A stretch of 64,000 nucleotides of DNA from an uncultured Planctomycetales bacterium (GCA_964579435.1 CAZOGI010000010.1:23583-87582), one strand, 5' to 3'. Counted from the first letter of the stretch, positions 28,028 through 52,900 are shown. Made by a program: numbers and translations. Notes: a model not told the origin generated them from the letters alone.

Positions 28028-28049
28028 GCTCTTGCGCCATACGCACGCT

Positions 28050-29390: not shown

Positions 29391-29419
29391 TTGTGCCTGG
29401 TCACCCGATTTGTTATAAT
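29391..29419 (+). promoter_or_regulatory. sigma70-like promoter TTGTGC-17 nt-TATAAT, leaderless-type
   Basis: -35 at 29391-29396 and -10 at 29414-29419. Only 8 nt separate the -10 from ATG 29428, and there is no SD. Confidence 0.5.
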
Positions 29420-29427
29420 ATAGACTT

Positions 29428-31233
29428 ATGACTCTGCCGATCGCACCCATACTCAGCTACCTGCCGGTATTCCTGCTGGCCTTCGCCCTGAGTTTTTTCG
29501 CCACCCCGATCGTGCGGCGCATCGCTCTGCACCAGGGCCTCATCGCCTACCCGCGCTCCGACCGCTGGCACAAGCAACCGACCGCCCTCATGGGAGGCAC
29601 CAGCATCTTCCTGGCAACGCTGGGGACGATCCTTTTTTTCCGGCTCTTTTCGCCCCCGATGACCGGGCTGCTCCTGGGAGGGACATTCCTCTTCCTCGCC
29701 GGCCTTGCCGATGATAAAATCCACCTGACGCCCTATACCAAGCTTTTCTTCCAGATCGCCGCCGGGTGCATCGCGGTCCTCTTCGGGACGACCCTGCCGC
29801 TCCCGCTGCACTCGATGCTCACCGTGCCGCTGACCCTGCTGTGGATCGTCGGGGTGACGAATTCTTTCAACCTCCTCGACAATATCGACGGCCTCGCGGC
29901 GGGGATCGCGACCATCTCCTCGCTCATGCTCTTCTTCACTTCACTGGTGCTCTCGCAGAACCCCTTCAGCATATTCGCGCTGATCCTGGCTGCTGCCGCG
30001 CTGGGATTCCTGCCCTATAATTTCAATCCCGCCCGGATCTTCATGGGAGACTCCGGCAGCATGTTCCTGGGATTCTCCCTGGCGGTCATCTCGATCTCGG
30101 GGAGCGGACGGCACCTCTCGAGCCTGTCCCTGACCATGCTCATCCCGGTCCTCATCCTTTCGGTGCCGATCTTCGATACTCTTTTCGTGATGATCGTGCG
30201 CACGCTCAACGGCCGCCGGATATTCGACGGCGGCAAAGACCATACCTCGCACCGTCTGGTCACCCTGGGGCTCTCCCAGCGCAAAACCGTCCTTCTGCTC
30301 TACGCCGTCAGCGTCGCCTTCGGCCTGATCGCAATACTCTATACCGCCCGCTTCAACCTCTTCGTCATCTCGGCGGTCGCCTTTCTTTCGGCGACGGTCC
30401 TGCTGTTCTTCGGCATCTTCCTCTTCGACGTAACCTCTTTCCCCGACGAAAAATCGGTCCGCCGCAAACAGCGGATGATGGCCGATGCCACGATCCTCAA
30501 CAACATCCTCATGCACAAACGCCGCTTCGTCGAGGTGCTCCTGGACCTGTCCTTTATCTTTATCGCCTACTACGCGTCGTATTTCCTGCGCTTTGAGGGC
30601 GTGGCCCTGCGGACCAACCTCGTGCTGATGCGGGAATCGCTCCTCTGGGTCATCCTCATCAAACTCTCGGTTTTCTTCATCTTCGGCATGTACCGGGGGA
30701 TGTGGCGTTATATCAGCGTCTCCGACCTGCTGACGATCTTCAAGGTCGTTTCCATCGGCTCGGTCTCCTCGATTATCTTCGTGACTTTCCTCTACCGCTT
30801 CCAGGATTATTCGCGCAAGGTCTTCTTCATCGACTGGATACTGCTGCTCTTTTTGACCTTGGGCTCGCGCATCATCATCCGGGTCATGGGCGAATTCTTC
30901 AGCGGATCGAAAAAAGGCAACACCAAGGTACTGATCTTCGGGGCAGGGGACACCGGCGAGATGCTCGTGCGCGAGATAAAACGAAACGCCGCGCTCTGCT
31001 ACAGCCCCGTCGGTTTCATCGATGACGACCCCACCAAGATCGGCACCAAGATACAGGGGGTCGCGGTTTTGGGCAACCGCGAACGCCTCGACCAGATCGT
31101 CCGGGAACGGGGGATACAGCTGCTCCTGGTCGCGGCCCCGGACATCGGCACCGAAGAATTCCAGGAACTGAGCGCCTACTGCAAGGAAAAAGGTATCGCG
31201 CTCAAGAAGATCAAGGGGCTTCTCGACGACTAA
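29428..31233 (+). CDS. WecA/MraY-family polyprenyl-phosphate sugar-1-phosphate transferase fused to a CapD/WbpM-N-terminal-like membrane + Rossmann module
   Basis: 601 aa. NSFNLLDNIDGLAAG and FMGDSGSMFLGF signatures. C-terminal KVLIFGAGDTGEMLVREI...VGFIDDDPTKIGTKIQGVAVLG. Confidence 0.8.
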   Translation: MTLPIAPILSYLPVFLLAFALSFFATPIVRRIALHQGLIAYPRSDRWHKQPTALMGGTSIFLATLGTILFFRLFSPPMTGLLLGGTFLFLAGLADDKIHLTPYTKLFFQIAAGCIAVLFGTTLPLPLHSMLTVPLTLLWIVGVTNSFNLLDNIDGLAAGIATISSLMLFFTSLVLSQNPFSIFALILAAAALGFLPYNFNPARIFMGDSGSMFLGFSLAVISISGSGRHLSSLSLTMLIPVLILSVPIFDTLFVMIVRTLNGRRIFDGGKDHTSHRLVTLGLSQRKTVLLLYAVSVAFGLIAILYTARFNLFVISAVAFLSATVLLFFGIFLFDVTSFPDEKSVRRKQRMMADATILNNILMHKRRFVEVLLDLSFIFIAYYASYFLRFEGVALRTNLVLMRESLLWVILIKLSVFFIFGMYRGMWRYISVSDLLTIFKVVSIGSVSSIIFVTFLYRFQDYSRKVFFIDWILLLFLTLGSRIIIRVMGEFFSGSKKGNTKVLIFGAGDTGEMLVREIKRNAALCYSPVGFIDDDPTKIGTKIQGVAVLGNRERLDQIVRERGIQLLLVAAPDIGTEEFQELSAYCKEKGIALKKIKGLLDD

Positions 31234-32466
31234 ATGACCGCGCCTTCGGCTCTGCTGACGCTCATCCAGGCACTCCTCTTCGGCGGCTGCCTGTGCTTTT
31301 TGCTCTTCGCCCCGTTCTCCAACGTCCTGGTCAAGGTCTGCTTCGGCGTCGGATCCTTTCTCTGGCTCGTCTATAACGTCCTCGATCGCAAAAAAAAGTT
31401 CCTCCGGGGCGTCCTGCCCGCACACCCGGTCAACCGCGCCCTTGCGTTCTTCGCCCTTGCCGGGCTGGCGTCGGTCCTCCTGGGCCATAACCCCTACCAG
31501 AGCCAGGGCGTATTTTTCGACAAATACCTGACCTATTTCTTCCTCTACGCTATCGGCATGGGACTCGCCGCGCGCATCGCTTCGGCGCCGCGCTGCCTCT
31601 CCTGGATACTGGTAACCGTCGCCCTGCTTTTCGGGATAGGGGGGGTGCACGATCTTATTCTCTACCACCGCATCAATGCGGCGCTCGCCGAACGGTTGTG
31701 GTCTGTCTTCAGGCACCAGATTAAATTCTACGCCTTCCCGCTGTATGTGACCTTCTATCTGCCGTTGTGCTTTTACCTTTTCATCGGATCCCGCAAACGG
31801 TTCCTGCGCGCCTCGGCGGCATGCGCCACGGCGCTCTTGTCCGTCTGCCTCTTCGCCAATGCCTCGCGCATCGCCTTCGGCGCCGTCCTCTCCAGCATCC
31901 TGCTGATCGCCTTTCTGCGCAGCCGCCGCAGCGCCCTCACCGTTTCGGCATTCTGCCTCCTGGCCGTCGGCGCGGTCCTGCTCATCCCGCAGGCGCGCGT
32001 GCGCATGAAGACCATCCCCAAGCCGGCTGAATGGTCCAACCGCCTGCCCCTGTACCGCTCGGCCTGGATGATCTACCGCGACAATCCGCTCTTCGGCGTC
32101 GGGGTCGGCAACTTTGAGCGGAGCCTGCATATCCCCAAATACGAACTCCCCGCCGATTATCCGGTCCCCCGCGAGCTTAACCTCCATGCCCACAACACCT
32201 ACCTTGAGCTGGCTGCCGAGATGGGGACGATCGGCCTTGCCGCGTTCCTGGGCGTATTTGCGGCATTCTTCATCGCCCTGCGGCGCAGGCTTACGCACAC
32301 TCCTGCCCCGCAGGACACCGCGCTTCTCTGCGGCATGGCGGCATCGATACTGGCGGTTTTGATTTTCGGCGTCGGCGCCTCGATCATTACCGTCGGCCTT
32401 ACCGTCTCCAGTTATTTCTGGCTTTTCTTCGGCCTGGCTTCCGGATTGCTGATCTCTAAACAATAA
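31234..32466 (+). CDS. O-antigen ligase/polymerase family (Wzy_C-type) membrane protein
   Basis: 410 aa with about 10 TM helices. Loop motif LHAHNTYLELAAEMGTIGL. Confidence 0.75.
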   Translation: MTAPSALLTLIQALLFGGCLCFLLFAPFSNVLVKVCFGVGSFLWLVYNVLDRKKKFLRGVLPAHPVNRALAFFALAGLASVLLGHNPYQSQGVFFDKYLTYFFLYAIGMGLAARIASAPRCLSWILVTVALLFGIGGVHDLILYHRINAALAERLWSVFRHQIKFYAFPLYVTFYLPLCFYLFIGSRKRFLRASAACATALLSVCLFANASRIAFGAVLSSILLIAFLRSRRSALTVSAFCLLAVGAVLLIPQARVRMKTIPKPAEWSNRLPLYRSAWMIYRDNPLFGVGVGNFERSLHIPKYELPADYPVPRELNLHAHNTYLELAAEMGTIGLAAFLGVFAAFFIALRRRLTHTPAPQDTALLCGMAASILAVLIFGVGASIITVGLTVSSYFWLFFGLASGLLISKQ

Positions 32467-32482
32467 CCGCTCCTTTTCCCGC

Positions 32483-34717
32483 ATGAACCGGTTTGCCGCA
32501 GGCATTACCTTCAGCGCCGCCGCAGGCATCATTGCCCAAGCGCTCCTTTTCCGGGAACTCTCGGTTGCCGTCTATACAAACGAGCTGCTCCTGGGGGCGC
32601 TTTTGTGCCAGTGGCTCATCATTGCCGCCCTGGGCGCAGCCGGTGCGATTTTCTTTCTGCGCCGCGCTACCCCTGCAAATTGGTTTTTTCTTTTCCTTGA
32701 GATCGCCTTCGCCCTTACCCTGGCTGCCGCCGTTACCTTCATTCGCTCCTTCAGGATTGTCTTTGCGATCGCTCCGGGAAAAGAACCGGGCCTCGGCATC
32801 GCGCTCCTCGTCTGCGGCATGAGCTGTCTGATCCCGGCCCTTATTCACGGAGCGCTGTTCCCTCTCTGGGCGCGCGTGCTGCCCGGGGAAAAAACAGTCG
32901 CACGGGCGTACGGCTGGGAAGCCCTCGGAGCGGCAGGCGGGGGAGTACTCTGCAGCTTCTGGCTCTTCCCGCACTTTTTTACGTACACAATACTCTTTGC
33001 GCTTTTTTCGGGTTGTCTGTGCATCGGCATAAGCATGCTGCGCAGGCCGGCGAAAACACGTCTGGCTTGGTGCGCCTTGGTTCTCGGAACCGCCCTGATC
33101 GTACGGCACCCGCTCGGCGCAGCCCTGGACCGGATCGAAAAAACAACCGCAGCCCGGCAGTGGGCGCATGCCGGCAGGCTCCTGGATTCCCGGCATTCGC
33201 GTTACGGACACCTCGCCCTTATTGCACGCAACGGACAACATACATATTATTACAACGGGACGCCGTTGCTGAGTTTGCCCGGATCGGACATCGACTTCGA
33301 AGAAACCGTCTCCCATCTGGCGCTTCTGGCGCATCCGTCTCCGGCGCAGGTACTGCTCCTGGGCCAAGGAAGCATCCGGCTCATCCCGCAGATACTCAAA
33401 CACCCCGTCGAAAAACTCGACTACGCCGAGCTTGACGACACACTCTTCTTTCTCATGGAACACAACGACCCGCAGAGCTCCCGCGCCTCCCTCAGCGACC
33501 CGCGCGTCAACCTGCGCTACCGCGACGGCCGCGCCTTCCTGACGGAGACGAACGCACTCTATGACGTCATCCTTATCATGCCTTCGAGTCCCCGCAGCCT
33601 TTTTACCAACCGCTTTTTGACGCGCGAATTTTACCTTCTGGCGCGCCAACACCTGAAACCGGGCGGCATCGTTGCCGCCTGGCAGGACGGATCAGACCAT
33701 TACCTGAGCCCGCAGAGAAATCGTATCCTCTCCAGCGTCTATGCCGCTTTCTCTTCTGCGTATCCCCGAACCCTGCTGCTGCCCGGGACGACCACCGTTC
33801 TTATCGGAACCGAAGACGAAGCCGCGTTTACAAAGACAGGGGATTGGGCCGAAGAACGCTACAGTGAACGCGGGCTGAAGCTATCGACGACGAACGAAAT
33901 GCACCTGCGCGATCGTTTCGCGCTGGGCCTGCCGCCTGCGAACTGGATGCTGCGGGAACTCCTCCCGCAAACACCCCGCAACAGCGACCGCCGTCCTTTT
34001 GGCGTCTTTGCCGGGATGGCCTTCTGGCAGAAACAGAATAGCCCCTCAACGGCATGGATTCTGGAGTCTGTCTCAGGCATCAGGACAAAACACTTGCTTT
34101 TCTTTTTACTGTCGGCAATGGCGTTTTGGGGAACAGCGCTTCGGCGCAGAAGAGACCCGGTCTCCCGCATTACAGAAATCGCGGTCTTTTCAACCGGATT
34201 CTGGGGGATGTGCTCTTCGATGCTGATCCTGTGTTCCTATCAAACAGTTCAGGGATACATCTTCGAGCGCTACGGGCTGATCGCGGGACTGTACATGGCA
34301 GGCCTGGGCATCTCAAGCTTCTGGGCGGCGAGAAGCGGAAGAAGAACAACGCGGCAGTTTCTCCTGCGCACCGAGATCGGCATGGTGCTGGCCTCATTCG
34401 GGCTCCTCCTGCTGCCGTCGATACGGGTACCCCATGCAACTGCGGTTTTTTGCCTGGCCTCTTTTGCGGCGGGCCTTCTCTGCGGGGCGGATTTCGCTTT
34501 TTCCAGCATCCTTGCATCAAATGATTCCGGCAAAGAAAACGCCCGGTTATACGTCGCGGATTTGGCCGGAGGATGCCTGGCGGCTTTGAGCGCGGGGGTC
34601 GTCCTGCTGCCGGTCATCGGGATGGCCTCGACGGCAGCGCTTTTGGCTGCGCTCAAAGCCTGCAGCGCCGCCTTCGCCTGGCGTTTAGGGCGCTTCCTGC
34701 CGCTGCCTTCCGATTAA
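32483..34717 (+). CDS. polytopic membrane protein with embedded spermidine-synthase-like (class I MTase fold) domain
   Basis: 744 aa. VLLLGQGSIRLI, ELDD, RDGRAFL and YDVILI motifs lie between two TM bundles. Confidence 0.65.
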   Translation: MNRFAAGITFSAAAGIIAQALLFRELSVAVYTNELLLGALLCQWLIIAALGAAGAIFFLRRATPANWFFLFLEIAFALTLAAAVTFIRSFRIVFAIAPGKEPGLGIALLVCGMSCLIPALIHGALFPLWARVLPGEKTVARAYGWEALGAAGGGVLCSFWLFPHFFTYTILFALFSGCLCIGISMLRRPAKTRLAWCALVLGTALIVRHPLGAALDRIEKTTAARQWAHAGRLLDSRHSRYGHLALIARNGQHTYYYNGTPLLSLPGSDIDFEETVSHLALLAHPSPAQVLLLGQGSIRLIPQILKHPVEKLDYAELDDTLFFLMEHNDPQSSRASLSDPRVNLRYRDGRAFLTETNALYDVILIMPSSPRSLFTNRFLTREFYLLARQHLKPGGIVAAWQDGSDHYLSPQRNRILSSVYAAFSSAYPRTLLLPGTTTVLIGTEDEAAFTKTGDWAEERYSERGLKLSTTNEMHLRDRFALGLPPANWMLRELLPQTPRNSDRRPFGVFAGMAFWQKQNSPSTAWILESVSGIRTKHLLFFLLSAMAFWGTALRRRRDPVSRITEIAVFSTGFWGMCSSMLILCSYQTVQGYIFERYGLIAGLYMAGLGISSFWAARSGRRTTRQFLLRTEIGMVLASFGLLLLPSIRVPHATAVFCLASFAAGLLCGADFAFSSILASNDSGKENARLYVADLAGGCLAALSAGVVLLPVIGMASTAALLAALKACSAAFAWRLGRFLPLPSD

Positions 34718-37456
34718 CGCAGAGAGCTCCGGGGCAAGGGGAGAACGCATCTGCCGCAATCTCTGCAGCTGCTCCTGCGCCGAAGCGAAATCCTTACGTT
34801 CCAAAAAAAGCCTCCCGAGGTGAAAAACTGCCAGGGGAGAGGGGCTGGGCAGCGACAAAGCCCGGACGAACGCCTCCTGAGCCTCATCGAGCCTGCCGCG
34901 TGCCATTTCAATGACACCGACGCTCACCCATGCCTCGCAGGATTTGGGGTCTCGCGCAAGGAAATCCTGAAGCACAGCCAGGGCATCATCGAAACGCCGC
35001 TGCGTTGCCAACAGAGCGCTCAGGTTCAACGCTGCCCGCCGGTGTCCCGGCTCAAGCCGGAGGGTTAAGCGGTATTCATCGATCGCCGGCGCCGTGATCT
35101 TCTGGCTTTCGTACGTGACTGCAAGATTGTAATGCGCCCGGGCGTTGGAAGGATCCAGGTCCAGCGCGCGCTTCAGGGCATTCGCCGCTTTGACGGGATC
35201 GCGCCGTTTTCCGCTCAAGATCCCCATCCGCAGGAATGCCTCGGCTGAACCCGGGTCGATCTCGGCCGCCGCCTGGTACAGGCGCAACGCTTTCTCCTGC
35301 ATCCCCAGCTCCTCCAAAACGCCGCCGAAGGCAAGATACGGTCCCGCACCCGGGGTTTGGCGCCGCGCCTTTTCAAAAGCCTGCTCCTGCGCCGTAAACG
35401 TCGCCTGTTCCTCCCGCAAGCCGATTAGTTGCCGCAGAAGGCGTTTGTCCTGAGGCCGGCGGGAAGCCTCTGACTGCAGAAGCTCCAGCGCCTGCGCGAA
35501 GAGTCCTTCCTGGCGGTAAAGCTTCAGGAGCAAGCGCAGGGCCGGGACAAAATCAGGCGAACGCTGCACGCACTCCCGGGCATACCGGATTGCTTGCGGG
35601 GAATCATTCTTCTGCTCAAAAAGCTGAGCCAGAGTGTAGAGCGCCAGGTAATCCCCGGGGTTCAAAGAGAGAGCGGTGCGCAGCGATTCTTCGGCGCGTT
35701 CCATCATACCCTTGCGCAGATACAACGCTCCCAGATCGGAGTAAACCCGGGATTCCTGCGGTTCTCGGGAAATAAGCTTCAGATACGTATCGATCGCTCC
35801 GGTAATATTGCCTGCCGCCACATAAGATTCGGCAAGGTTAAAATACGCCTCTTGGTATCGCGGTTCGACGGAAATCGCGGTCCGGAATGAGGCGATTGCC
35901 CGCTCATACCGCTCGCGCGAACGGTACAGTACGCCCAGGTTATTATGCACCTCCGGCAGCCGGGGATTGACCGCAAGGGCCTGGCGCAGGAACGCCTCGC
36001 CTTTATCCGTTTCGCCCCGCTCAAAATAGAGCACGCCCAGATTGGCGATTCCCCTGACATACGAAGGGTCAAGGCGGAATGATTCGCGAAACGCCCGCTC
36101 GGCGCGCTGGAAATCATGCGCATTCTTGTAGGCCATCCCCAGGTTGAGCTGCGCGCGCGGCTTGCGGGGAGATTTGGAGACCACATCCTCCCACAGTCCG
36201 GTATCGGTAAGCCAGACATTTCCGTAACGCAGCGTCCCCGCGCCGAAGGCGAAAACAACCAGAGCCAGAAACAAAACCCATGCACGCGTTGCCGCCTGAG
36301 CGCCGAGTTCGGCCCGCTGCTGCGGCATGATGCGCCCGAAAAAACGGTACAGGGCCAGCACCCCCAGCACGATCCAGCCCACGGAGGGCAGATACAGCCG
36401 GTGCAGGAAGACCGTATCTTTAAGCGGCACAAAACTGGAATCGGGAGCGCTGATCAGAAAATAGAACAGCGCCCAGAAAACCAGGGACGGATGCGACCGG
36501 AAGCGGCGTCGCAGCCACACCAGAAGCGAAAACAGCGCCGCGCAGGCCACAAAGGTCAGCGGCTCGAATATCGACGCCGCATAACGCCAGTCATAATCGA
36601 GGTTGAGCCCAACGGGAAAAATAAGGATAAAAAGGTAATACCAGAAAACCGAACACTGCGTCAGCAAATACGTCCAGGCGCTCACAAACGGTATGCCAAA
36701 ACCTGCAGCCGCTTGTTCCCCGTACGCGCCGCTGCGGTAACCTCCCCCGATCAGATATGCGCCGAAGAGCAGGGTCGCCGCAAGGCACAGGTAGAACCAG
36801 CGTCTCCTTGAAAGTGCGCGCAACGAGCGCCCGGAAATAAAACAGTAATCGAAGAGCGCAATTACCAGGGGGGCGGTATTTCCGGTCTCCTTGGAGCCGA
36901 TCGCGCACAAAACCGCAACGACGGTTGCCGAAAGCAGCGGCACGCGGAAACGCCGAAACCGTTCGGCGAGGATGAATAAAACCAGAGACGCCAGATAAAA
37001 GAACGAACACAACAGGACTGACCGGCTCGAGACATAGACGACTGACTCCACGCGCACCGGATGGACCACGAAAATAAGCGCGCTCAGGAACGCGGCACGA
37101 ATCCCCGGCGCACGCCATCTCTCGGGCACCGACGGGAGCGAAAACGTCAGGGAGAGGAAAACGAAGAGCAAAACCCCGTTGAGCGCATGCAGCAGCGTAT
37201 TGAAGAGATGGTATCCGAAAGGCTCGAGCCCGCCGAGGCGATAATTGATCGCGAAACTCAATTGGTACAGCGGACGCTCGCTGAAACGCAGGAAGGGATT
37301 GCTCAGGTTCCGGATAAACCGGTTCTCGGTAACCGTCCCCTGGTCGTCGAACTGAAAAGGGCTGCTCAGCGTGTGGGCATACAGCAGGAAGGCGCTTGCC
37401 ACCAGCAGCACCGCCAGGAATACGACCGGAACGGTTTGTTTCGAGCTCATAGTCAT
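34685..37456 (-). CDS. TPR-repeat GT-C glycosyltransferase-like protein (TMTC/DUF1736-type)
   Basis: Track ORF runs to 37795; trimmed to ATG 37456 (MTMSSKQ...). TM1 is followed by FQFDD, then about 10 TM helices, then 10 or more TPR units. Confidence 0.7.
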   Translation of the reverse strand: MTMSSKQTVPVVFLAVLLVASAFLLYAHTLSSPFQFDDQGTVTENRFIRNLSNPFLRFSERPLYQLSFAINYRLGGLEPFGYHLFNTLLHALNGVLLFVFLSLTFSLPSVPERWRAPGIRAAFLSALIFVVHPVRVESVVYVSSRSVLLCSFFYLASLVLFILAERFRRFRVPLLSATVVAVLCAIGSKETGNTAPLVIALFDYCFISGRSLRALSRRRWFYLCLAATLLFGAYLIGGGYRSGAYGEQAAAGFGIPFVSAWTYLLTQCSVFWYYLFILIFPVGLNLDYDWRYAASIFEPLTFVACAALFSLLVWLRRRFRSHPSLVFWALFYFLISAPDSSFVPLKDTVFLHRLYLPSVGWIVLGVLALYRFFGRIMPQQRAELGAQAATRAWVLFLALVVFAFGAGTLRYGNVWLTDTGLWEDVVSKSPRKPRAQLNLGMAYKNAHDFQRAERAFRESFRLDPSYVRGIANLGVLYFERGETDKGEAFLRQALAVNPRLPEVHNNLGVLYRSRERYERAIASFRTAISVEPRYQEAYFNLAESYVAAGNITGAIDTYLKLISREPQESRVYSDLGALYLRKGMMERAEESLRTALSLNPGDYLALYTLAQLFEQKNDSPQAIRYARECVQRSPDFVPALRLLLKLYRQEGLFAQALELLQSEASRRPQDKRLLRQLIGLREEQATFTAQEQAFEKARRQTPGAGPYLAFGGVLEELGMQEKALRLYQAAAEIDPGSAEAFLRMGILSGKRRDPVKAANALKRALDLDPSNARAHYNLAVTYESQKITAPAIDEYRLTLRLEPGHRRAALNLSALLATQRRFDDALAVLQDFLARDPKSCEAWVSVGVIEMARGRLDEAQEAFVRALSLPSPSPLAVFHLGRLFLERKDFASAQEQLQRLRQMRSPLAPELSALIGRQRQEAP

Positions 37457-37475
37457 CGGGCCGTTTTGCGGCCGT

Positions 37476-40769: not shown

Positions 40770-40773
40770 TGGG

Positions 40774-41757
40774 TTACCTCTCCTGGCGCGCCTGAAAAAG
40801 CGCCAGCGCTTTCAGGACGACGCAGGTGGTATGCAAATAGAACCCCTCATCGACGCGCCTGCCGTAGAGGGCGCGCAAGCGCTCGTAGTCCCCGAAGGAG
40901 CCGTTCGGATTCTGGCAGGAGAGAAGGAACTTTACTCCCTGAGGGATAATCGTTGCTGTGCGCATTTTGAGCAGTTCCATGCACAGTAAAAGCTCGGCCA
41001 CCAGGTCGGGATCCCGCTTTCCGATATATGCCGCAGCCAGATCGCTCAGGACCGAATCCAGGTATTGCGCATCGCTTTCGCTCAGCAGCTCCGACAGGGA
41101 GTCGTCACCGAAGCCGGCGAGCGCCAGGACCTCATGCGTCAGCGCGTACACCTCCAGCGTATCGAGGGCAGAAGCATCGGGACGCGCCTGGATAATGCCC
41201 GCGCGGTATGCCGCACGCAGGTCAAAGGGCGGCTCGATGCCGAAAAAACGGTAATAGACGGCGAAAGCCAGCTGCTGGTTAACGCCCCGGGAAGAAAGGT
41301 GCGCGTTCAGGCGGGGGAGGATGGCGCGGATCTCTTGGCGGTATGCGGTTGTCTCGAAGCCGGATTTCTCCAGGAGGTAACAAAAACGCAGGTACGAGGT
41401 CGCATCCTCGGCAAACTGCTCCGCCGGGATCGCTCCCATATCGTGAAACGAAGCCTCCTCGGTGATGCGGGCGATCTTGCGCAGGCGCAGCTCGAGGGAC
41501 GGCCGCAGCTGCGGCGGCAGACGGGGCGCGATCGCCGTATACGCTTCAAAAAGCTCGACGGTCTTTTTCTTCCCCTTGATCCCGAAACGGCGCAATTGCC
41601 CCGGGTTAAACTCGATCGTATCCAGCCAGGGCGCAGCCTTGATCATGCTGCGCAGCAGGAGTTCCCGGAGCAAAGGCTCCGAGGAAGCGCCGCAACCGGG
41701 CACCGCGACAGAGAGGCCGACAACCAAAGCAAGGGGGAGGAAGGTACGGTTCGTCAT
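40774..41757 (-). CDS. secreted protein or lipoprotein with a prenyltransferase/terpene-cyclase-like alpha/alpha-toroid repeat
   Basis: 327 aa. Signal peptide LALVVGLSVAVPGCG with a possible lipobox. C-terminal LLSCQNPNGSFGDY. Confidence 0.45.
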   Translation of the reverse strand: MTNRTFLPLALVVGLSVAVPGCGASSEPLLRELLLRSMIKAAPWLDTIEFNPGQLRRFGIKGKKKTVELFEAYTAIAPRLPPQLRPSLELRLRKIARITEEASFHDMGAIPAEQFAEDATSYLRFCYLLEKSGFETTAYRQEIRAILPRLNAHLSSRGVNQQLAFAVYYRFFGIEPPFDLRAAYRAGIIQARPDASALDTLEVYALTHEVLALAGFGDDSLSELLSESDAQYLDSVLSDLAAAYIGKRDPDLVAELLLCMELLKMRTATIIPQGVKFLLSCQNPNGSFGDYERLRALYGRRVDEGFYLHTTCVVLKALALFQARQER

Positions 41758-41773
41758 AGCGACTTGAGGAAAT

Positions 41774-41802
41774 ATTATAACATGAAAGGTCGCAGGGACA
41801 CA
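41774..41802 (-). promoter_or_regulatory. candidate promoter for the minus-strand block (TGTGTC-17 nt-TATAAT)
   Basis: On the minus strand, TATAAT (plus-strand 41774-41779) lies 16 nt upstream of ATG 41757. The -35 is weak. Confidence 0.3.
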
Positions 41803-41831
41803 ATGACCCTTGATACCAGCCTAAAATCCCA

Positions 41832-41860
41832 TTGAGTTAACCGGCGGCGGTTGATAGAAT
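41832..41860 (+). promoter_or_regulatory. sigma70-like promoter TTGAGT-17 nt-TAGAAT, leaderless-type
   Basis: -35 at 41832-41837 and -10 at 41855-41860. ATG 41869 lies only 8 nt after the -10. Confidence 0.5.
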
Positions 41861-41868
41861 AAGGGCAG

Positions 41869-43308
41869 ATGAATATATTACTCCTGAACCCCTCCTTCGG
41901 CCCCGACTTCTGCAAATCCGCCCGCTGGTTCGCCCGCTCGCGCGGCAGGGTGCAGCGCCATCCCGATTTCCTCTGCGAGGCAACGGCGCTTCTGGAAGCG
42001 CACGGACACGACTGCGCGCTTATCGACGCGGCTGCCGGGAACCTCGGCGCCGAAGAGACCGCCCAACACATACGCCGCATCCGGCCGCAGTTGACGCTCA
42101 TCCAGGCAACGACCCCGAGCATCGATTCCGACATCTCCTGGGCCCGGCAGGCAAAAGAGCTGACCGGCGGCAGGTCCCGCACCGTTCTGGTCGGAGCGCA
42201 CGTGACCGCCGAACCCGAAGACACCTTGCGGCGGGGCAGGGGCGCGGTTGATGCCGTTGCCCGGGGAGAGTACGACCTGACGCTCAAGGAACTGGCAGAT
42301 GGATCTGACTTCGGCTCGATCCTTGGCCTTGCGTACCTGAGCGCCGACACGTTCGTCGCCACCGCGCCGCGCCCGTTCATCGAAGACCTGGACACGCTGC
42401 CCTTTCCGGCGTGGAGACACATCGACCCGCGCACCTACCGCGACGGGACCAAACGCCACCCCTTTATCACGCTGCTGGGCTCCCGGGGGTGCTTGGGGAC
42501 ATGCACCTTCTGCCTTTTGCCGCAAACGATGTACGGCCGCCGCGCCCGGACCAAGAGCCCGCAGCGCATTATCGATGAGATCCGCTACGATCTTGGCCTC
42601 TTCCCGTTCCTGAAGGAGATCATGTTCGAGGACGACACCTTTGTCAGCGCCGCTAACGCGGGGCGCCTCGAAAGCATATGCCGCCTCCTGGAAAAAGAAC
42701 GCATCCGCATACCCTGGAGCGCAAACGCGCGCGCCGACCTGCTCGACCGCGCGCTCCTGGAGCGCCTTAAAAAATGCGGTTGCAGGATGCTCTGCGTCGG
42801 TTACGAATTCGGCGCCCAGGAGATGCTGGATGCGGCCGGCAAGAATATTCCGCTTTCGACGATGCGCGAATTTTCCGCGTGGGCTGCCGAAGCCGGTATC
42901 CGCCTGCACGGCTGTTTCATGTTCGGCGGACCGGGGGAGAACGAGCGGACCTGCAGACAGACCCTGGAGTTCGCCAAAGAGCTTCCCCTGGAAACGGCCC
43001 AGTTCTCGGGGATCGCCGCGTACCCGGGCACCGCGTATTACCGGTGGTCGAAAGAGAAGGGATATCTGTGCGCCCGCGACTGGAGCGACTGGGTCCGCGC
43101 AGACGGCGAGCAGGCGACGGTGCTGCAGTTCCCCGGACTCCCCAAAGAAGAAATAAACCGCTGGATCAACAGGAGCCTGCGCGAATTTTACCTGCGTCCG
43201 GCGCAGCTCGCCCGGCTCGCGGGGGCGAGCCTGCGCAGCTGGAACGATTTCGAAACAAGGCTCTACGGTCTGCGTCAATTACTCGCGGGCGAGGCGCTCA
43301 AACGATGA
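41869..43308 (+). CDS. B12-binding-domain radical SAM enzyme (paralogue 1)
   Basis: 479 aa. N-terminal MNILLLNP...HGHDCALIDA (B12-binding-like). LLGSRGCLGTCTFC CxxxCxxC cluster motif. Confidence 0.85.
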   Translation: MNILLLNPSFGPDFCKSARWFARSRGRVQRHPDFLCEATALLEAHGHDCALIDAAAGNLGAEETAQHIRRIRPQLTLIQATTPSIDSDISWARQAKELTGGRSRTVLVGAHVTAEPEDTLRRGRGAVDAVARGEYDLTLKELADGSDFGSILGLAYLSADTFVATAPRPFIEDLDTLPFPAWRHIDPRTYRDGTKRHPFITLLGSRGCLGTCTFCLLPQTMYGRRARTKSPQRIIDEIRYDLGLFPFLKEIMFEDDTFVSAANAGRLESICRLLEKERIRIPWSANARADLLDRALLERLKKCGCRMLCVGYEFGAQEMLDAAGKNIPLSTMREFSAWAAEAGIRLHGCFMFGGPGENERTCRQTLEFAKELPLETAQFSGIAAYPGTAYYRWSKEKGYLCARDWSDWVRADGEQATVLQFPGLPKEEINRWINRSLREFYLRPAQLARLAGASLRSWNDFETRLYGLRQLLAGEALKR

Positions 43309-46093: not shown

Positions 46094-47084
46094 GAGCGCC
46101 ATGCCGGACATAGCCATCATCATTCCCGCCCGCAACTGCGCCGGCACCATACCGCTTGCGCTACAGGCGTGCCTCAAGCAGGATTACGCCGGCAGATACG
46201 AAATAATCGTCGTGGATGACGGCTCAACCGATGATACCGCAGCGGCCGTCAAAAATTTCCCCGTGCGTCTCATCGAACAAAAACACGCCGGCCCTGCCTG
46301 CGCGCGCAACCGGGGGACAAAAGCTTCAGAGGCGCAGCGCTACGCTTTCATCGATGCGGACTGCGTGCCGCCGTGCGATTGGCTGCGGCGCCTCAACGCT
46401 GCCTTCACGGCAACGGGGTACGCCTGCGCCTACGGCAGCTACACGATCCGCAACAAAAACTCCCTCCTGGCGGAAGGGATCTACCGGGAAATACTCCTGC
46501 GCCACAGCCGCCTCAAACAGGACTCTGCCGCACTCGGCTCCTACAACGCAATCTTCGACGCGACAGTCTTTCACGAATGCGGCGGCTTCGACGAATCATT
46601 CCGGGACGCAAGCGCCGAGGACACGGAGCTGGCGTACCGCCTTCGCCGCAACGGCAAACGCATACTTTTTCTGCCGGAGTGCACAGTGGCGCATCTTTTC
46701 CCCGAGCAGCTGGATTTCTATCTGGCTTCCCAATTCCGCCACGGTTTCTGGAGAGCGCGTCTCTACAGGCTGCATCCGGCAATGGCGGCAGGGGACGGAT
46801 ACACGCGGCTCAAGGACATCATCGAGACGCCCGCGGCGCTCCTGCTGAGCCTCTGCGCCGCGTTCTTTTTTCATCACGCCTGCCGCGTTGCCGCACTCCT
46901 GCTCTTTGCGGGACTGCTGCTTGCGCATGGCGCCTCCGCGGCGCAGCTCTCCCTGCAGGCGAAAAAGCCGGCGCTCCTCCTGTATGCCGGCGCGCTGCTC
47001 CTGCGCAGTTTTGCGCGGGCATACGGATTCTTTTTCGGGCTTCTGGCACTTCCCGGCAAAAACCGATGCGCTGCTCGATCGTAA
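46083..47084 (+). CDS. glycosyltransferase family 2 with C-terminal TM helices
   Basis: 333 aa; GTG 46083, or ATG 46101 as an alternative start. IAIIIPARNCAGTI...IIVVDDGSTDDT and FIDADC. Confidence 0.75.
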   Translation: MPDKSAMPDIAIIIPARNCAGTIPLALQACLKQDYAGRYEIIVVDDGSTDDTAAAVKNFPVRLIEQKHAGPACARNRGTKASEAQRYAFIDADCVPPCDWLRRLNAAFTATGYACAYGSYTIRNKNSLLAEGIYREILLRHSRLKQDSAALGSYNAIFDATVFHECGGFDESFRDASAEDTELAYRLRRNGKRILFLPECTVAHLFPEQLDFYLASQFRHGFWRARLYRLHPAMAAGDGYTRLKDIIETPAALLLSLCAAFFFHHACRVAALLLFAGLLLAHGASAAQLSLQAKKPALLLYAGALLLRSFARAYGFFFGLLALPGKNRCAARS

Positions 47085-47752
47085 TCCCCGCCCACAACGA
47101 AGAGGGCACGATCCGGACGCTCCTGGAAAGAACCCGGGAGTTTCTCGGCGGAACCGGGGAATGCGAGATCATTGTGGTCGATGACGGCTCAAGCGATAAA
47201 ACCGCAGAGCGGGTGCAGAAACTGGCGGCATCGATCCCGACGATACGGCTCCTGCGTCTTTCTCCCCGCAGAGGGCAGGGGATGGCGCTTGCCGCCGGGA
47301 TTGCTGCCGCACAGACCGGCATCATCGTCACGATGGATGCCGACCTGCAGAACGACCCGGCCGATATCCCGGCCCTGCTTGAGCGTCTCGAAAACGGCTT
47401 TGACGTTGTCTGCGGCTGGCGCAAAAACAGGAAAGACCCGTTCGTAAAACGAATAAAATCCCGGGTCGCCAACCTCTTGCAACGCCTTTTGCTCGGCGTT
47501 AAACTGCATGATATGAGCTGCACCCTGCGCGCCTACCGGCGGGAGGCGCTCGAAGGGATCGAATTCGGGCGGGGGTATGATTTTTCGCTCCTGCCGTACC
47601 TGATCGCGCGCCGCAAAGCCATGCGCATCTGCGAGGTCCCGGTCAGCCACGAGCGCCGGCACAGCGGCACCTCCAAATACGGGTTTTGGGGGACCTGCGC
47701 CGGGACATTCGTCAGTTTTGTGCGCTGCGTTGCAGCGCGACCGCATAAATGA
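47066..47752 (+). CDS. glycosyltransferase family 2, polyprenyl-phosphate glycosyltransferase (ArnC/GtrB/DPM1 type)
   Basis: Track ORF 46373 trimmed to ATG 47066. CSIVIPAHNEEGTI...IIVVDDGSSDKT...MDADLQNDP...CTLRAYRREAL. Confidence 0.85.
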   Translation: MRCSIVIPAHNEEGTIRTLLERTREFLGGTGECEIIVVDDGSSDKTAERVQKLAASIPTIRLLRLSPRRGQGMALAAGIAAAQTGIIVTMDADLQNDPADIPALLERLENGFDVVCGWRKNRKDPFVKRIKSRVANLLQRLLLGVKLHDMSCTLRAYRREALEGIEFGRGYDFSLLPYLIARRKAMRICEVPVSHERRHSGTSKYGFWGTCAGTFVSFVRCVAARPHK

Positions 47753-47799
47753 GGCGTGACCATCTAGAAACAAGAGACCTGGGTCAGGAAACATGCACA

Positions 47800-49704
47800 A
47801 TGCAAGGATACCCCATGACTGATCGCCGATTCAACCTTTTCATCAGCTTCGCCTGCCTGGCGCTCATCGCGCTCTCCTACGCCAACACTCTCAAGGCGGA
47901 TTTCCACTTCGACGATTTCGACAGCATCGTCAATGTCCCGGCGATCCGCAGCCTGACCAATTTCAAGGAGATATTCCGTCTCACCGAACGGCCGCTCGTC
48001 AACTACTCCTTCGCCGTCAACTACTTCTTCGGAAAACTCAACGTCACCGGATTCCATCTGGTCAATATCGGGCTCCACGCGCTCTGCACGCTGCTGGTCT
48101 TTTTCTTCCTGCGGGAATTGCTTGGCGTACCCCTGCTTAAGGAACGCTACAGCCAAAAGATTGGCCGGTGGCTCTCTGCGGGAAGCGCGTTTCTTTTTGC
48201 CGTCCATCCGGCCAGAGTGGAAGCGGTCACGTATATTACCGCCCGATCGGAGAGCATGGCGTCGGCTTTTTATCTGCTCTCCTGCCTTTGCTTCCTGAAA
48301 TCCCTCTCTGACATCAAGAGAGAGCGGCTCTTCCAAGCGGCGGCAATTGTAGCCAGCGCCATCGGCATGGCAACCAAGGAGATCGTCGCCACACTGCCGG
48401 CGTCCCTGCTGCTGCTCGATTATCTTTTTGTGTGCGCCGGGAATCCCGCCTGCCTGAAGAAACGCGCCCGGTTCCATGCCTCGATGTTCGCCACGATCGC
48501 CGTTACCGTTGCGCTGGTGCTCTATTCGGACAAATGGGGAGCAGCCGGACTGGGTAACCCGAACCTGCACACGCCCCTTCAACACGCCCTCAGTGGTTTG
48601 CGCGCGTACGTCTATTATCTGGCCCTTTTCATCTTTCCGGCACCCGGACGCCTTAACTTCGACACCGATTTTGCCCTCTCCCGCAGCTTCACCGAACCGC
48701 AGGTCCTCGGCGCAAGCCTCTTCATCGCCGCGGCACTTGTCTTGGCCCTGTACGAATCGCGCCGGTGCCCCTTGATCACCTTCGCGATCTTGTGGTATTT
48801 TCTCCTGCTTCTGCCGACCACCAGCTTCATTCCGATCGAAGACCTCGTCTATGAGCGCAGGATGTATCTGGCCGCGCTCGGGCCCGGGCTCATCACGCTC
48901 CTTGCCCTCGGGCCGCTTCCCCGACGCCTGCGCATCGGCATTCTGGCGCTGACAGTCGGGATCCTCTCCCTGTGGACCATCCAGCGCAACGCCATCTGGC
49001 GAACCGAATTCTCCCTCCTGAGCGATTCGCTCAAAAAATCTCCGTACAAAACCCGCACGCTTACGAATATGGGCATGTTTTACCTCACCAAACAACAGGA
49101 CTTAGCTGCTGCCCGCTCCTACCTTGCCAGGGCCTTGCACTACAACCCGGATGCGGCAAACAGCCTGCTGAATATGGGCGTGGTGCAGCTGTTGGAGAAC
49201 AATCTGTCCGGGGCAGAACAACTTTTCCGTAAATTGCTTTATCTCTTTCCGGACGCAACCGCCGGCTATGTCAACCTGGCGACCGTATACCGCCGCTCCG
49301 GCCGGCTCCGGGAAGCAGAAGAGCTTCTACGAACCGCAATCACCATCGAACCTTCCTTCGCGGAAGCGTACGGGAATCTGGGCGTTATTCTGGCAAGCAA
49401 AAGAGAATTTGAGGAAGCCGAAAAGGCGCTTATTAAATCAATCGCTCTGAATCCCGATCTGCCTGAGCCGCACCATAGCCTGGGGCTCATCTATCAGAAG
49501 AGGGGTGACCATAAAAACGCTATCACTCAATTCCAGAGAGCCGTCACTTTGCAGCCTCAATTTTCAAAGGCTCTTTACAGCATGGGCATCTCGTACCTGG
49601 CGCTTGGAGATAAAGAAAAAGCAGAGGAGACGTATGCGAAGCTCCTGAAAATCAATCTTGATCTGGCGCTAAACTTGTTGTCCAGGATTGAGTTAAGACT
49701 TTAG
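47800..49704 (+). CDS. TPR-repeat GT-C glycosyltransferase-like protein (TMTC/DUF1736-type)
   Basis: Track ORF 47749 trimmed to ATG 47800. TM1 then FHFDDFD, about 10 TM helices, and a C-terminal TPR array. Paralogue of 34685-37456. Confidence 0.7.
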   Translation: MQGYPMTDRRFNLFISFACLALIALSYANTLKADFHFDDFDSIVNVPAIRSLTNFKEIFRLTERPLVNYSFAVNYFFGKLNVTGFHLVNIGLHALCTLLVFFFLRELLGVPLLKERYSQKIGRWLSAGSAFLFAVHPARVEAVTYITARSESMASAFYLLSCLCFLKSLSDIKRERLFQAAAIVASAIGMATKEIVATLPASLLLLDYLFVCAGNPACLKKRARFHASMFATIAVTVALVLYSDKWGAAGLGNPNLHTPLQHALSGLRAYVYYLALFIFPAPGRLNFDTDFALSRSFTEPQVLGASLFIAAALVLALYESRRCPLITFAILWYFLLLLPTTSFIPIEDLVYERRMYLAALGPGLITLLALGPLPRRLRIGILALTVGILSLWTIQRNAIWRTEFSLLSDSLKKSPYKTRTLTNMGMFYLTKQQDLAAARSYLARALHYNPDAANSLLNMGVVQLLENNLSGAEQLFRKLLYLFPDATAGYVNLATVYRRSGRLREAEELLRTAITIEPSFAEAYGNLGVILASKREFEEAEKALIKSIALNPDLPEPHHSLGLIYQKRGDHKNAITQFQRAVTLQPQFSKALYSMGISYLALGDKEKAEETYAKLLKINLDLALNLLSRIELRL

Positions 49705-49810
49705 TGAGGAGTGAGGAGTTAGGAGTTTGGAGTTTGGAGCTATGCTTTTAGTTCGTATTTTCTCCCAACTCCTAACTCCCTACCCCCAACTCCCTACTCC
49801 CAACTCCCGA
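49705..49810. repeat. inverted arrays of heptanucleotide tandem repeats (long imperfect hairpin; possible terminator/insulator)
   Basis: Left arm: GAGGAGT GAGGAGT TAGGAGT TTGGAGT TTGGAGC. About a 20-nt AT-rich spacer. Right arm: CTCCCAA CTCCTAA CTCCCTA CCCCCAA CTCCCTA CTCCCAA CTCCCGA. The arms are largely complementary. Confidence 0.8.
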
Positions 49811-49910
49811 ATCACCTTGCCGCCTAAAATGAGCGATGGCATACTTTATAATAGGTAAGAAGATCGGCAACAAAAACCATGACACCAGAGACAAGAAAAC
49901 AAAAAAGAAA

Positions 49911-49938
49911 GTGACTCTTGAGAATAAAATAATATAAT
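49911..49938 (+). promoter_or_regulatory. candidate promoter GTGACT-16 nt-TATAAT, very short leader
   Basis: Sits in the AT-rich 245-nt intergenic region. -10 at 49933-49938, with ATG 49951 lying 12 nt downstream and no SD. Confidence 0.4.
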
Positions 49939-49950
49939 AATAGTTAAGCC

Positions 49951-52900
49951 ATGAAGAGCTTACCGACAAAGAAATTTTTCCGCACTTTTCTCATCCTGGG
50001 GATAACGACGCTCCTGTGCGCAACCCCGCATGCCCTTGCCGCAACCCGTTTCTATTTCGACGCCTCAACCGCAGCAGATGTCACTGCCTCCTATGACGCC
50101 GGCTGGGAATACCAATCCGAGGCAGGCCGCTACAAACTCAACAGGACCAAAGGCTCCTCCGCAATAACCATCGGCACCCAGATCGGCCCCTGGACCGCCG
50201 GCAGCGCCAACCAGGCCCTTGACCGCCAGTACATAAGCGATCCGATCGAAGCCCAGACCATAAGCGGCACGGTCAAAGGCCAGGTCATGTCGCGTGAATA
50301 CAACACCAGCGATAACGTGAACCGGATGTACATCACGGTCAAAGTCGTCTCCAACGACGGTTCCAGCGTGCGGGGGACACTCCTTGCCCTCAATACCTAT
50401 TACACGAATGCCGAACTGATCAGCAACGTAACCCACCGCAACGCCATCCTTGCCAATTCCGACACCGTCACCAACGTCACCGCGCAGCAGGGCGACCGCA
50501 TCCTCATCGAGATCGGCTTCGGCAGCTCGACAACCCAGACCACGCCCGAAGGCTCCTGCAAATGGGGGGAGAATGCATCCGACCTCCCGGAAAACGAAAC
50601 CCAAACAACCGACGGTGCGGGGTGGTTTGAGTTCTCCGCGGATATCACTTTCTATACTCCGCCCAAACCGCAATTCACCCAGAAAGCCTACCAGTGGGAG
50701 AATGACGATTCAACCTCAGGCGTCAACGCCAATTCACAGGCAGCCGAAGACAATACCGCCCTTACCGACGTGCGCATCGGACAGCGCCTCACCTGCAGGA
50801 TGCAGGTCGAGAACGACTCAACCGCCGCATCGAGCGACACCGTCTATCAGCTGCAGTGGGAGAACAACACCGATAACCCCGGGCGCTGGTTCCCGGTCGG
50901 CTACGGGACGCAGATCTCGTACGCAACCGGGCTCGCCGGCTTAAGCGGCGCCTCAACCGGCACCACCGCGCTCTGCGGAACCCCCACGTACACCATGGTC
51001 GCCGGCACCTGGCAGTCAGGGACGAGCCAGAACCCGCCCCACTCCATGGAGACGCAGCGAAGCGCGGAATTCTCTTTTGTCATCGACACCGCCAACGCAA
51101 AAGAAAATAAAGTCTATCGCCTGCGCCTCTTCGACAAAACAAACGCCCAGGCTTTCAATGCCTACACCGTCTATCCGCAGCTGACCACCGTCACCGCCGC
51201 CAACAACACCCTGCGCTACAGCAAAGAGCCACTCGATGCGGTGCAGAACACCTGGCGCATGGCCTCCTATCTGGACGAAACCGGCTATGACAACAGCGCC
51301 TCGGATAACTCGGTTTACGATTCGCTCCCCGCCCGGCGGCTTGCCCTTCGTGCGCAAGCCGACCTGACCTTTACCTCATTCGATGTTTCGCAATACCCGA
51401 CCTCGCAGATGGCCGTAGGCGTGGGAGACTTCAACAACGACGGCTACAACGACCTGCTCATGGGCGGCCAGCGCTACGCGACCTATGTCGGCCGGGCATA
51501 CCTTTATCTCGGCGGCAGCCCGATGGACAGCGTCTGTGACCTCACCATGCAGGCCGGTGCCCTCTACACCAATTCTTATTTCGGCTCCGCGGTCGCGGTC
51601 GGAGATATCAACAACGACAGTTTCGACGACGCCGTGGTCGGCAACTGGGGGTATTACCGTATGTACCTCTACTACGGCTCCACGACCATGAACAACGTCA
51701 TCGACATGACCTTTACCGGCGAAGCGACGAGCGACTACTACGGCTATTCGATCGGCATCAACGACGTCAACGGCGACAGCTTCAAGGATATCGTCACCAA
51801 CGCCCAGTGGTGGAATAACGGCCAGGGAAGACTCTACGTCTATTACGGCGGCACCACGATGAACAATGTTTGTGACCTGACGATAAACGGACAGGGAGGG
51901 GTGCACAACTATCCCGGGTTCGCCTGCGTCGTCGAAGACGTCAACAACGACAGTTTTGCCGACATACTCGTCAGCTCTCCCTACTACTACTATTCGGACA
52001 TGCGCGGCAGGGCATGGCTCTGGTACGGCGGAAACCCGATGGATGCCACCTGCGACAAGACCTTTACCGGAGAGACAACGGGCTCCTATTTCGGCGCTTC
52101 GGGATTATCGATCGGCGAAGTCAATAACGACGGCTTTAAGGACATCCTTATCGGAGCCTACGTCTACAGCTCCACGAAGGGCCGATCGTATCTTTTTTAT
52201 GGAGCGACCGGCACGAGCATGGATATAACCGCTGACAAAACCATCACCGGGAACGCGGGAGACTATCAGGGACAGGGAGAGCAGATCGTCGACGTCAATA
52301 ACGACGACTACGCTGACCTGGTCATCGGCGCCGATGCCTTCGGCAACAGCAGGGGAGTGGTCAAGATTTACTACGGCGGCGCCGACATGGACATCGTCGA
52401 AGACCTCAGCATCGCCACGGGCCAGACAGGCAACTATTTTTCCCAATCGGTCAATACGGGCGACCTGAACAACGACGGGGCCGCTGACCTGATCATCGGA
52501 GCCAACAGCTATCCGAGCCTCACCTACCAGGGCCGCGCCTGGGTTTATTACACCAAACCCCTCTTTGCCCCAACCCAGATCTTCGCCAAAAAGAACACCA
52601 ACAACACCGATTACATCGCCTTTGCCTGGAAAGGCAAAACCGACATGGCCGCAACTTCCGACAACATCATCGTCGAGGCTGCCCAGCAGACGGCGATGGA
52701 TGGCACTAACGACGAGACATTCACCGGAGAAGCGGGGAGCAATTTTTTCAGCAACTGTATCGCGCTTGCCGATTTCAACAACGACCATTACCAGGACCTG
52801 GTGCTGGGCGCCGACGGCTACAACAGCAACCAGGGCCGCGCCTATCTCTACTACGGCGGCACCGGCATAGTCGACACCGCCGCGGCACTTACGTTTAATT

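Follow-up and report, generated by a model that had tools for sequence, protein, structure and literature searches.

Background

Leaderless mRNAs are a well-known phenomenon. Here we describe promoter-like sequences placed directly before the first start codons of operons in the 64-kb stretch CAZOGI010000010.1:23583-87582 (hereafter the window), which we assign to a metagenome-assembled genome of the Omnitrophota. An earlier note on this DNA had pointed to three such genes, a WecA-like gene, an HpnJ-like radical SAM gene and a giant gene (cases 1, 2 and 3), and had proposed that they are transcribed into leaderless or near-leaderless mRNAs. A fourth, on the minus strand (case 4), is added here. 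The best explanation, and in our judgement a reasonably probable one, is that genuine sigma-70-type promoters abut the first starts of these operons, with a leaderless mRNA in case 1, a leader of 0–2 nt in case 2, and short leaders lacking a Shine-Dalgarno (SD) sequence in cases 3 and 4.

The closest described counterparts are the leaderless or ‘TA-led’ genes of Zheng et al. 2011 (PMC3160421), which were predicted across 953 bacterial genomes from a TANNNT box whose first T precedes the start by about 12 nt; the genome-wide TANNNT scan proposed in the earlier note is in essence this method. The Omnitrophota genes resemble the TA-led genes of Actinobacteria and Deinococcus-Thermus in that the first T of the box lies within about 12–14 nt of the start, no SD is present, the start is ATG, and SD-led genes coexist with them. 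However, the modal position of the first T in the Omnitrophota loci is -14 rather than around -12, and the element is a full extended -10 as opposed to the bare TAnnnT of the high-GC phyla. Genes with this layout are in the minority, 12 of the 161 that were called in related Omnitrophota loci.

Leaderless mRNAs of Caulobacter crescentus and Escherichia coli (PMC8459731) resemble cases 1 to 3 in strongly favouring AUG and in having a 5' end with little structure, and a 5'-terminal AUG is predicted here as well. In those two species transcription start sites (TSSs) were mapped and translation was measured, whereas the starts of the window cases are predicted from sequence. There, 1–5 extra nucleotides cut translation strongly, and cases 3 and 4, at approximately 5 and 8 nt, would therefore fall outside the leaderless class. 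A further comparison is offered by the extended -10 promoters of E. coli (PMC5730371, PMC12641261), which likewise have TGnTATAAT, TTGnnn at 16–18 nt, and a pyrimidine-purine-pyrimidine (Y-R-Y) triplet within positions 6–9 after the box. In E. coli the TSS lies most often at position 7 after the -10 box and usually within 6–9, with a strong preference for a purine at the start and a pyrimidine before it (PMC5730371), and the Y-R-Y triplet centred on the start (Y-1 R+1 Y+2) is conserved across bacteria (PMC12641261). The Omnitrophota genes differ in that the start element would be the start codon itself, usually at position 9, which is the edge of that range; the E. coli modal position may not be that of Omnitrophota. 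Finally, SD-independent translation of short or unstructured leaders is the subject of PMC5397173 and PMC5850609, and the window offers a parallel in the giant gene, in the minus-strand operon and in many internal genes, which have no SD and an A/U-rich, unstructured start region. The leaders in those studies are long enough for 30S binding, whereas those predicted here are 0–8 nt.

In the paper library that was searched, no study addressed promoters, translation initiation, leaderless translation or the use of SDs in Omnitrophota. As a mechanism this is known, and the novelty is modest: the signature is present, and conserved over deep divergence, in this widespread uncultured phylum.

Probable promoters and start codons of the four operon-leading genes

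Case 1 precedes a WecA-like gene encoding GT4 and CoA_binding_3 domains (601 aa, 29428–31233, plus strand), the first of a WecA-like / Wzy_C / spermine-synthase-like group. Its -35 hexamer TTGTGC (29391–29396) is located 17 nt before the -10 box, which is of the extended type, TGtTATAAT (29411–29419, hexamer TATAAT at 29414–29419). The 8-nt discriminator ATAGACTT then leads directly into ATG 29428 (29420–29430). Case 2, also on the plus strand, belongs to an HpnJ-like B12-binding radical SAM gene (479 aa, 41869–43308) heading an operon that contains three radical SAM, two GT2 and one TPR gene. Here TTGAGT (41832–41837) is separated by 17 nt from TGaTAGAAT (41852–41860, hexamer TAGAAT at 41855–41860), and the discriminator AAGGGCAG, again of 8 nt, is followed by ATG 41869 (41861–41871).

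Case 3 consists of GTGACT-16-TATAAT (49911–49938, plus strand), with GTGACT at 49911–49916 and TATAAT at 49933–49938. It has 10 of 12 consensus matches, is preceded by an A-rich tract, and its -10 box lacks the TG extension. A 12-nt stretch, AATAGTTAAGCC, separates the box from ATG 49951 (49939–49953) of the giant gene (49951–57924, plus strand), whose 2657-aa product carries FG-GAP and peptidase C25 domains. The same gap holds a second TATAAT (49847–49852, plus strand), 98 nt before ATG 49951, which has no recognisable -35 hexamer and is a possible alternative promoter; the sequences following the two boxes, ATAATAGGTAAG and ATAATAGTTAAG, are similar to each other. Case 4 is the divergent minus-strand promoter TTGTGT-18-TGtTATAAT (41774–41803; TTGTGT at 41803–41798, TGtTATAAT at 41782–41774). 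It is followed after 16 nt, ATTTCCTCAAGTCGCT, by ATG 41757 (41755–41773), the start of the first gene of a four-gene operon running from 41757 down to 34685, the 327-aa product of which has a signal-peptide-like start. At the level of motifs, cases 1, 2 and 4 have the form of sigma-70-type extended -10 promoters, with TGn before a TATAAT-like hexamer and a TTGACA-like -35 at 16–18 nt.

The coordinates and spacings that had been given for the first three motif sets are exact, and the gene identities (WecA-type, B12-binding radical SAM, giant gene) agree with this analysis. The start codons of cases 1 to 3 are also sound, each ATG being the first possible start codon of its open reading frame (ORF) and the N-termini matching their families. 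Gene 1 begins with the first transmembrane helix of the WecA-like GT4 protein (homologues 585–618 aa) and has no alternative start before codon 29, which itself lies inside this conserved helix. Gene 2 has the N-terminus MNILLLNPSFG, its HpnJ-like homologues (475–480 aa) begin at the same M-x-[IV]-L-[LFI]-L-N-P residues, and its next in-frame start is 27 codons downstream. The giant protein has an N-terminal signal peptide. No full-length homologue of it was found among 5.8 billion proteins besides its own entry, the best matches having approximately 30–32% identity over approximately 30–31% of the query.

The top promoter-like score near gene 2 was given by another candidate, TTGATA-17-TATATT (41851–41879, plus strand; 10 of 12 matches). 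It was rejected, as it would fire inside the conserved MNILLLNPSFG, and the A/T-rich first codons (AAT ATA TTA) most likely account for it. Two apparent intergenic gaps, at 10228–10441 and 60037–60207, were likewise discarded, as overlapping ATGA-coupled ORFs start at 10224 and 60034.

Conservation of the layout in related loci

The best matches of gene 1 that carry names are all from Candidatus Omnitrophota/Omnitrophica, at 58–64% identity. A close relative was not found; therefore intergenic DNA is not alignable and the layout alone can be compared. Omnitrophota loci were obtained from a metagenome scan using the WecA-like C-terminal domain, which gave at least about 16 useful loci, and from eight further contigs. 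A genome-contig scan with full-length alignment picked up generic MraY/WecA motifs, mostly from Firmicutes and other phyla with 2 Omnitrophota loci, and its loci were reused as negative controls. Across L161, L163, L165–L170 and the window (27005–34717) the proteins are approximately 60% identical and gene order is conserved: DUF4330, a small ORF, epimerase, GT4, WecA-like, Wzy_C and a membrane spermine-synthase-like gene, often then pgk-tpi-secG.

We compared 20 WecA-like orthologues with readable upstream DNA, the window included. In 10 of these a -10 box is found 6–10 nt before the gene's own start, mostly as TGnTATAAT and in many with TTGnnn 16–17 nt upstream. The spacing is 8 nt in the window, L083, L165, L168, L169 and L170 (counted to its second ATG), 7 nt in L090, 6 nt in L094, 9 nt in L086 and 10 nt in L166. 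The box at 8 nt is extended in L083, L165, L168 and L169 (TGnTATAAT) and in L170 (TGtTAAAAT). Upstream of it, -35 hexamers with a 17-nt spacer occur in L165 (TTGCTG), L168 (TTGTTG) and L170 (TTGCTT), and L090 has TTGAAC with 16 nt. Seven of the 20 orthologues are leadered, carrying the same box type 29–58 nt upstream (two with a clear SD); one is ambiguous and two are operon-internal. The proteins are mutually 59–71% identical, and abutting and leadered forms are intermixed.

The length of the WecA-like N-terminus varies by 0–8 codons, and the box-to-start distance holds at 6–10 nt. The box therefore follows the start codon and not the conserved protein body, which in our view is the strongest argument for a functional link between promoter and start. 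Two starts required attention in this comparison. In L170 (10001–10021) the called WecA-like start is an ATG inside the -10 box, and a second ATG 8 nt after the box fits the family N-terminus; in L086 (880–903) the first in-frame ATG lies at the box and a second, 9 nt after it, fits the family. The upstream ATGs of both are probably not true starts, and that of L170 was probably mis-called.

The same layout occurs outside the WecA-like family. All three MarC orthologues have TTGAAG or TTGCCT, 16–17 nt, TATAAT, 8–9 nt and ATG, and further single abutting examples are located at L081 7262, L090 14631 and L169 15393. Boxes of this type also stand at normal distances. Upstream of pgk the Omnitrophota loci have TTGACA-17-TATATT, -TATAGT or -TATAAT followed by leaders of approximately 30 nt with a GGAGG-type SD. 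Before groES-groEL in L169 (16090–16170) a TATAAT stands ahead of a perfect CIRCE operator, TTAGCACTC-N9-GAGTGCTAA, and a GGGAGG SD. Because canonical boxes precede pgk and groES, TATAAT-type boxes are reasonably read as -10 elements in Omnitrophota. HrcA/CIRCE heat-shock control seems to be present in the phylum as well.

Positional scans

A scan independent of gene calls recorded how far each TGnTAnAAT lies from the next start of an ORF with 100 aa or more. Of the 30 distances in 241 kb of Omnitrophota DNA, 9 were 5–9 nt (2.5 expected, p = 5e-4), compared with 5 of 101 in the 891 kb of controls, mostly from other phyla, and 2 of 17 in 606 kb of mixed metagenome. With the Omnitrophota set enlarged to 415 kb, 8 of 55 distances were exactly 8 nt, which places the first T at -14, and 16 of 55 were 6–10 nt; the peak at 8 nt is absent in the controls. 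About half of the scan signal comes from the WecA-like family, so the scan demonstrates conservation more than genome-wide frequency. A looser TANNNT scan was dominated by the 3-nt periodicity of codons and was dropped. A TATAAT peak 21 nt before ORF ‘starts’ proved to be the coding motif PYNFNPAKIFMG inside WecA-like genes, and a match to TGNTATAAT-N8-ATG on the minus strand of L083 (5202), antisense to the gene that encloses it, was set aside as a chance match.

The 12 called genes mentioned above come from nine related loci and have a strict -10 box 5–11 nt from the start; 7 of them belong to the 58 genes preceded by a gap of 30 nt or more. An ATG start and the lack of an SD are common to all 12, the latter partly by construction, because the box occupies the space of the SD. 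ATG is the start codon in 17 of the 18 abutting cases and GTG in the remaining one. The earlier note had suggested leaderless translation for the first cistron of major envelope operons; four cases are a small basis for that generalisation, and in the nine loci the layout is confined to these 12 of 161 genes.

Predicted transcription starts and leader length

Promoter activity, the exact TSS and the route of ribosome loading are what we infer from the motifs and their spacing. A pyrimidine occupies -1 in 15 of the 18 abutting cases compared with 60 of 161 called genes (37%; Fisher p = 2e-4). A pyrimidine followed by ATG forms a Y-R-Y triplet, which fits initiation on the A of the ATG. In the six WecA-like genes with 8-nt spacing, positions 7 and 8 are all pyrimidines. 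Positions 6–9 of case 1 read C, T, T, A, the sole purine being the A of the ATG, with T at -1. The predicted TSS of case 1 is thus A 29428 itself, at position 9, leaving no leader. In case 2 the triplet C-A-G at position 7 offers a Y-R-R start site at the modal position, and transcription is predicted to begin at A 41867 (position 7, a 2-nt leader) or at A 41869 (position 9, no leader).

The ATG of case 3 is at position 13 after the -10 box and that of case 4 at position 17, both outside the usual 6–9. The TSS of case 3 is predicted at around position 8, near A 49946, with a leader of about 5 nt, and that of case 4 at around position 9, with a leader of about 8 nt. As few as 1–2 additional 5' nucleotides strongly lower the translation of leaderless mRNAs in E. 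coli and Caulobacter (PMC8459731), and cases 3 and 4 are therefore better called very short leaders without an SD. A -10 box abutting the start at approximately 6–8 nt is found in cases 1 and 2 (8 nt), while in case 3 (12 nt) and case 4 (16 nt) the distance is greater; nine further WecA-like and three MarC orthologues also abut, with spacings of 6–10 nt. The proposal of leaderless or near-leaderless mRNAs is partly supported: the motifs resemble genuine sigma-70-type promoters set against start codons, their layout recurs in distant Omnitrophota, and cases 3 and 4 would have short leaders.

Housekeeping promoters, mostly of the extended -10 type (TGnTATAAT with TTGnnn 17 nt upstream), would thus be set against the first start codon of the operon. 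At gene 1 RNA polymerase would initiate on the A of ATG 29428, the mRNA would be truly leaderless, and the ribosome would bind its 5'-terminal AUG without an SD. At gene 2 transcription would begin either on the ATG or 2 nt upstream. Leaders of approximately 5 and 8 nt, too short for an SD, would precede the giant gene and the minus-strand operon, whose translation would therefore be SD-independent without being strictly leaderless.

Shine-Dalgarno use and 5' structure

With an assumed anti-SD sequence and a pairing threshold of -4.4 kcal/mol or stronger, none of the four genes is SD-led: pairing energies for cases 1 to 4 are +0.5, -3.9, +0.8 and 0.0 kcal/mol. Case 2 does have AAGGG 3 nt from the ATG, which is too close for an SD. 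The first three of these values bear out the earlier observation that no conventional SD precedes the three genes. Over the window an SD is found in 43% of genes compared with 21% of random positions, and in related Omnitrophota loci in 50% compared with 22%. The contrast that had been drawn with internal genes, said to use GGAG-type SDs or ATGA coupling, is overstated in view of these 43%, as many internal genes have neither.

Folding of the first 40 nt after the ATG gives -1.9, -1.7 and -1.5 kcal/mol for cases 1 to 3, which are the 5th, 4th and 3rd least structured of 46 genes (mean -6.4 kcal/mol, standard deviation 3.4); case 4 is average at -6.0 kcal/mol. Leaderless mRNAs require a weakly structured 5' end (PMC8459731), with which cases 1 to 3 agree.

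Two other promoters of the window are followed by SD leaders, as had been reported. TTGTAA-17-TACAAT is followed after 48 nt containing GAGGA by ATG 27053 of the epimerase gene (26976–27055, plus strand; SD pairing -5.9 kcal/mol; N-terminus MNILITG). TTGCCC-17-TGtTAGAGT is followed after 26 nt containing AGAGGGG by ATG 61915 of a Wzz/GNVR tyrosine-kinase-like gene (61860–61917, plus strand; -8.1 kcal/mol). ATG 27005, which abuts TACAAT, was considered as an epimerase start and rejected, as the domain and the conserved MNILITG begin at ATG 27053.

Alternative explanations

The boxes could instead be minor or inactive internal promoters. The functional mRNAs would then be long, arising by read-through or from promoters further upstream (for gene 1 the epimerase-GT4 operon, for gene 3 the TATAAT at 49847), and the first cistrons would be translated internally without an SD. 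We regard this as unlikely, but several observations fit it. Gene 1 sits 130 nt behind a co-oriented, functionally related glycosyltransferase gene, and no terminator-like site was called between the two; for this reason read-through transcripts of gene 1 probably exist too. The GT4 and WecA-like genes are adjacent in most related loci, and the WecA-like gene is operon-internal in some. A weaker TTGTGC-18-TATAAC lies approximately 27 nt upstream of the gene 1 promoter, the second TATAAT lies upstream of gene 3, and 57% of window genes lack an SD. What long transcripts leave unexplained is the recurrence of a near-perfect TGnTATAAT, with TTG at -35, at 6–10 nt from the start across orthologues of 59–71% identity, where it tracks the start codon, and the pyrimidine at -1. 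A 111-nt gap lies between gene 2 and the divergent minus-strand operon, and neither can therefore be reached by read-through from upstream. A strong hairpin parts gene 3 from the operon before it.

Another explanation places the function of the TATAAT-like sequence in the RNA, as an A/U-rich unstructured element of a longer transcript that, just before the start codon, recruits ribosomes via protein S1 instead of an SD. The low use of SDs, the A/T-rich and weakly folded start regions, and the strikingly A-rich leader of gene 3 would all suit such an element. However, an S1-type enhancer could do without an exact TATAAT, a TG one base before it or a TTG a further 17 nt upstream, yet each of these recurs, and the same motifs at normal distance before the SD-led pgk and groES are plainly promoters there; we consider an RNA element very improbable. 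Chance is harder still to credit, although A/T-rich intergenic DNA in a genome of 60% G+C could yield -10-like hexamers near starts and the third gap is very A/T-rich. Within the window TANAAT-N8-ATG is found twice compared with an expectation of 0.61; as two or more copies turned up in 16 of 100 shuffles, the window by itself gives no significance, and promoter-like matches across 26–46 kb are only about twice the shuffle mean. TATAAT itself, on the other hand, is found 11 times on both strands compared with 5.1 expected, a number reached by 0 of 100 shuffles, and 4 of the 11 fall in the three large intergenic gaps totalling approximately 490 nt. The layout in nine further WecA-like and three MarC orthologues and the sharp 8-nt peak absent from control loci also speak against chance. 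Given the window-only statistic, the case rests on the position of the box at the first starts of operon-leading ORFs, together with the orthologues.

Several points weigh against promoters that abut the start codon and leaderless transcripts, in addition to the window statistic and the probable read-through into gene 1 given above. An E. coli-like modal TSS at position 7 would leave a 2-nt leader at the 8-nt spacing, and this spacing puts the first T of the box 2 nt beyond the -12 typical of predicted leaderless genes (PMC3160421). Since 57% of the window genes lack an SD, its absence is not distinctive. The existence of leadered and operon-internal orthologues means that the abutting layout is not required for the WecA-like gene. 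Case 3 is outside the TSS range and has the rival TATAAT 98 nt upstream. Comparative backing exists for case 1 only among the first three cases: for case 2, the three HpnJ-like homologue loci are operon-internal or of unassigned phylum and gave no support, and for case 3, with no full-length homologue, there was no orthologue comparison to draw on.

Repeats, hairpins and a small ORF

The 3' end of the GT4 gene upstream of case 1 contains GACACATGACAC directly repeated at 29275 and 29289. A 26-nt stretch at 29259–29284 is 73% identical to the promoter and start stretch at 29407–29432, and the TTGTGC-18-TATAAC noted above is a weaker copy of the promoter. The repeats near 29259–29432 suggest a local duplication that may have moved or copied the promoter and start region. 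In L081 (8530–8620), two near-identical GC-rich hairpins (GTAGGCGAGGTTTAAACCTCGCCTAC, GTAGGGGCGGGTTTGAAACCCGCCCCTAC) are found between a TATAAT and the WecA-like start, and may be a repeated intergenic element.

The hairpin before gene 3 is a long imperfect one built of heptamer repeats (49703–49807, plus strand), directly after the stop of the TPR gene, with a folding energy of -42.5 kcal/mol (z = -4.3, no shuffle as good). Its arms are (GGAGTGA / GGAGTTA / GGAGTTT)n and (CTCCCAA / CTCCTAA / CTCCCTA)n, with no T-run, and they resemble SD and anti-SD sequence. It may be a terminator, an insulator of gene 3 from upstream transcription, or a stabiliser of the mRNA end. An Rfam search of the window gave no match, so no riboswitch or known leader RNA accounts for the gaps.

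A 53-codon ORF (MNKKNQPAAKRPYTKPAIAFSKKIEIISAVCDSGFGGLSNCRKSSTPCLRSRA) at 60034–60195 (plus strand) has a good SD, AAGGAG, and shows ATGA coupling with the stop codon of a radical SAM/SPASM gene (58726–60036); a PF14907 nucleotidyltransferase gene comes after it. The ORF looks like the precursor of a ribosomally synthesised and post-translationally modified peptide beside its maturase.

Implications for Omnitrophota

Tentatively, and without calling it probable, we propose that a conserved module TTGnnn-17-TGnTATAAT-N8-ATG, with the TSS on the start codon 9 nt after the -10 box, has been kept for the initiating sugar-phosphate transferase of the envelope cluster and for MarC across lineages of approximately 60% identity. 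If this is true, leaderless translation in a major uncultured phylum would be a trait selected for in particular genes rather than a side effect of promoter drift. At a practical level, gene callers that rely on the SD can misplace starts in Omnitrophota genomes, the called start of the WecA-like gene in L170 being a probable example. The recurrent TGnTATAAT-N8-ATG offers a concrete and cheap target for working out the promoter and start-site rules of this uncultured phylum.

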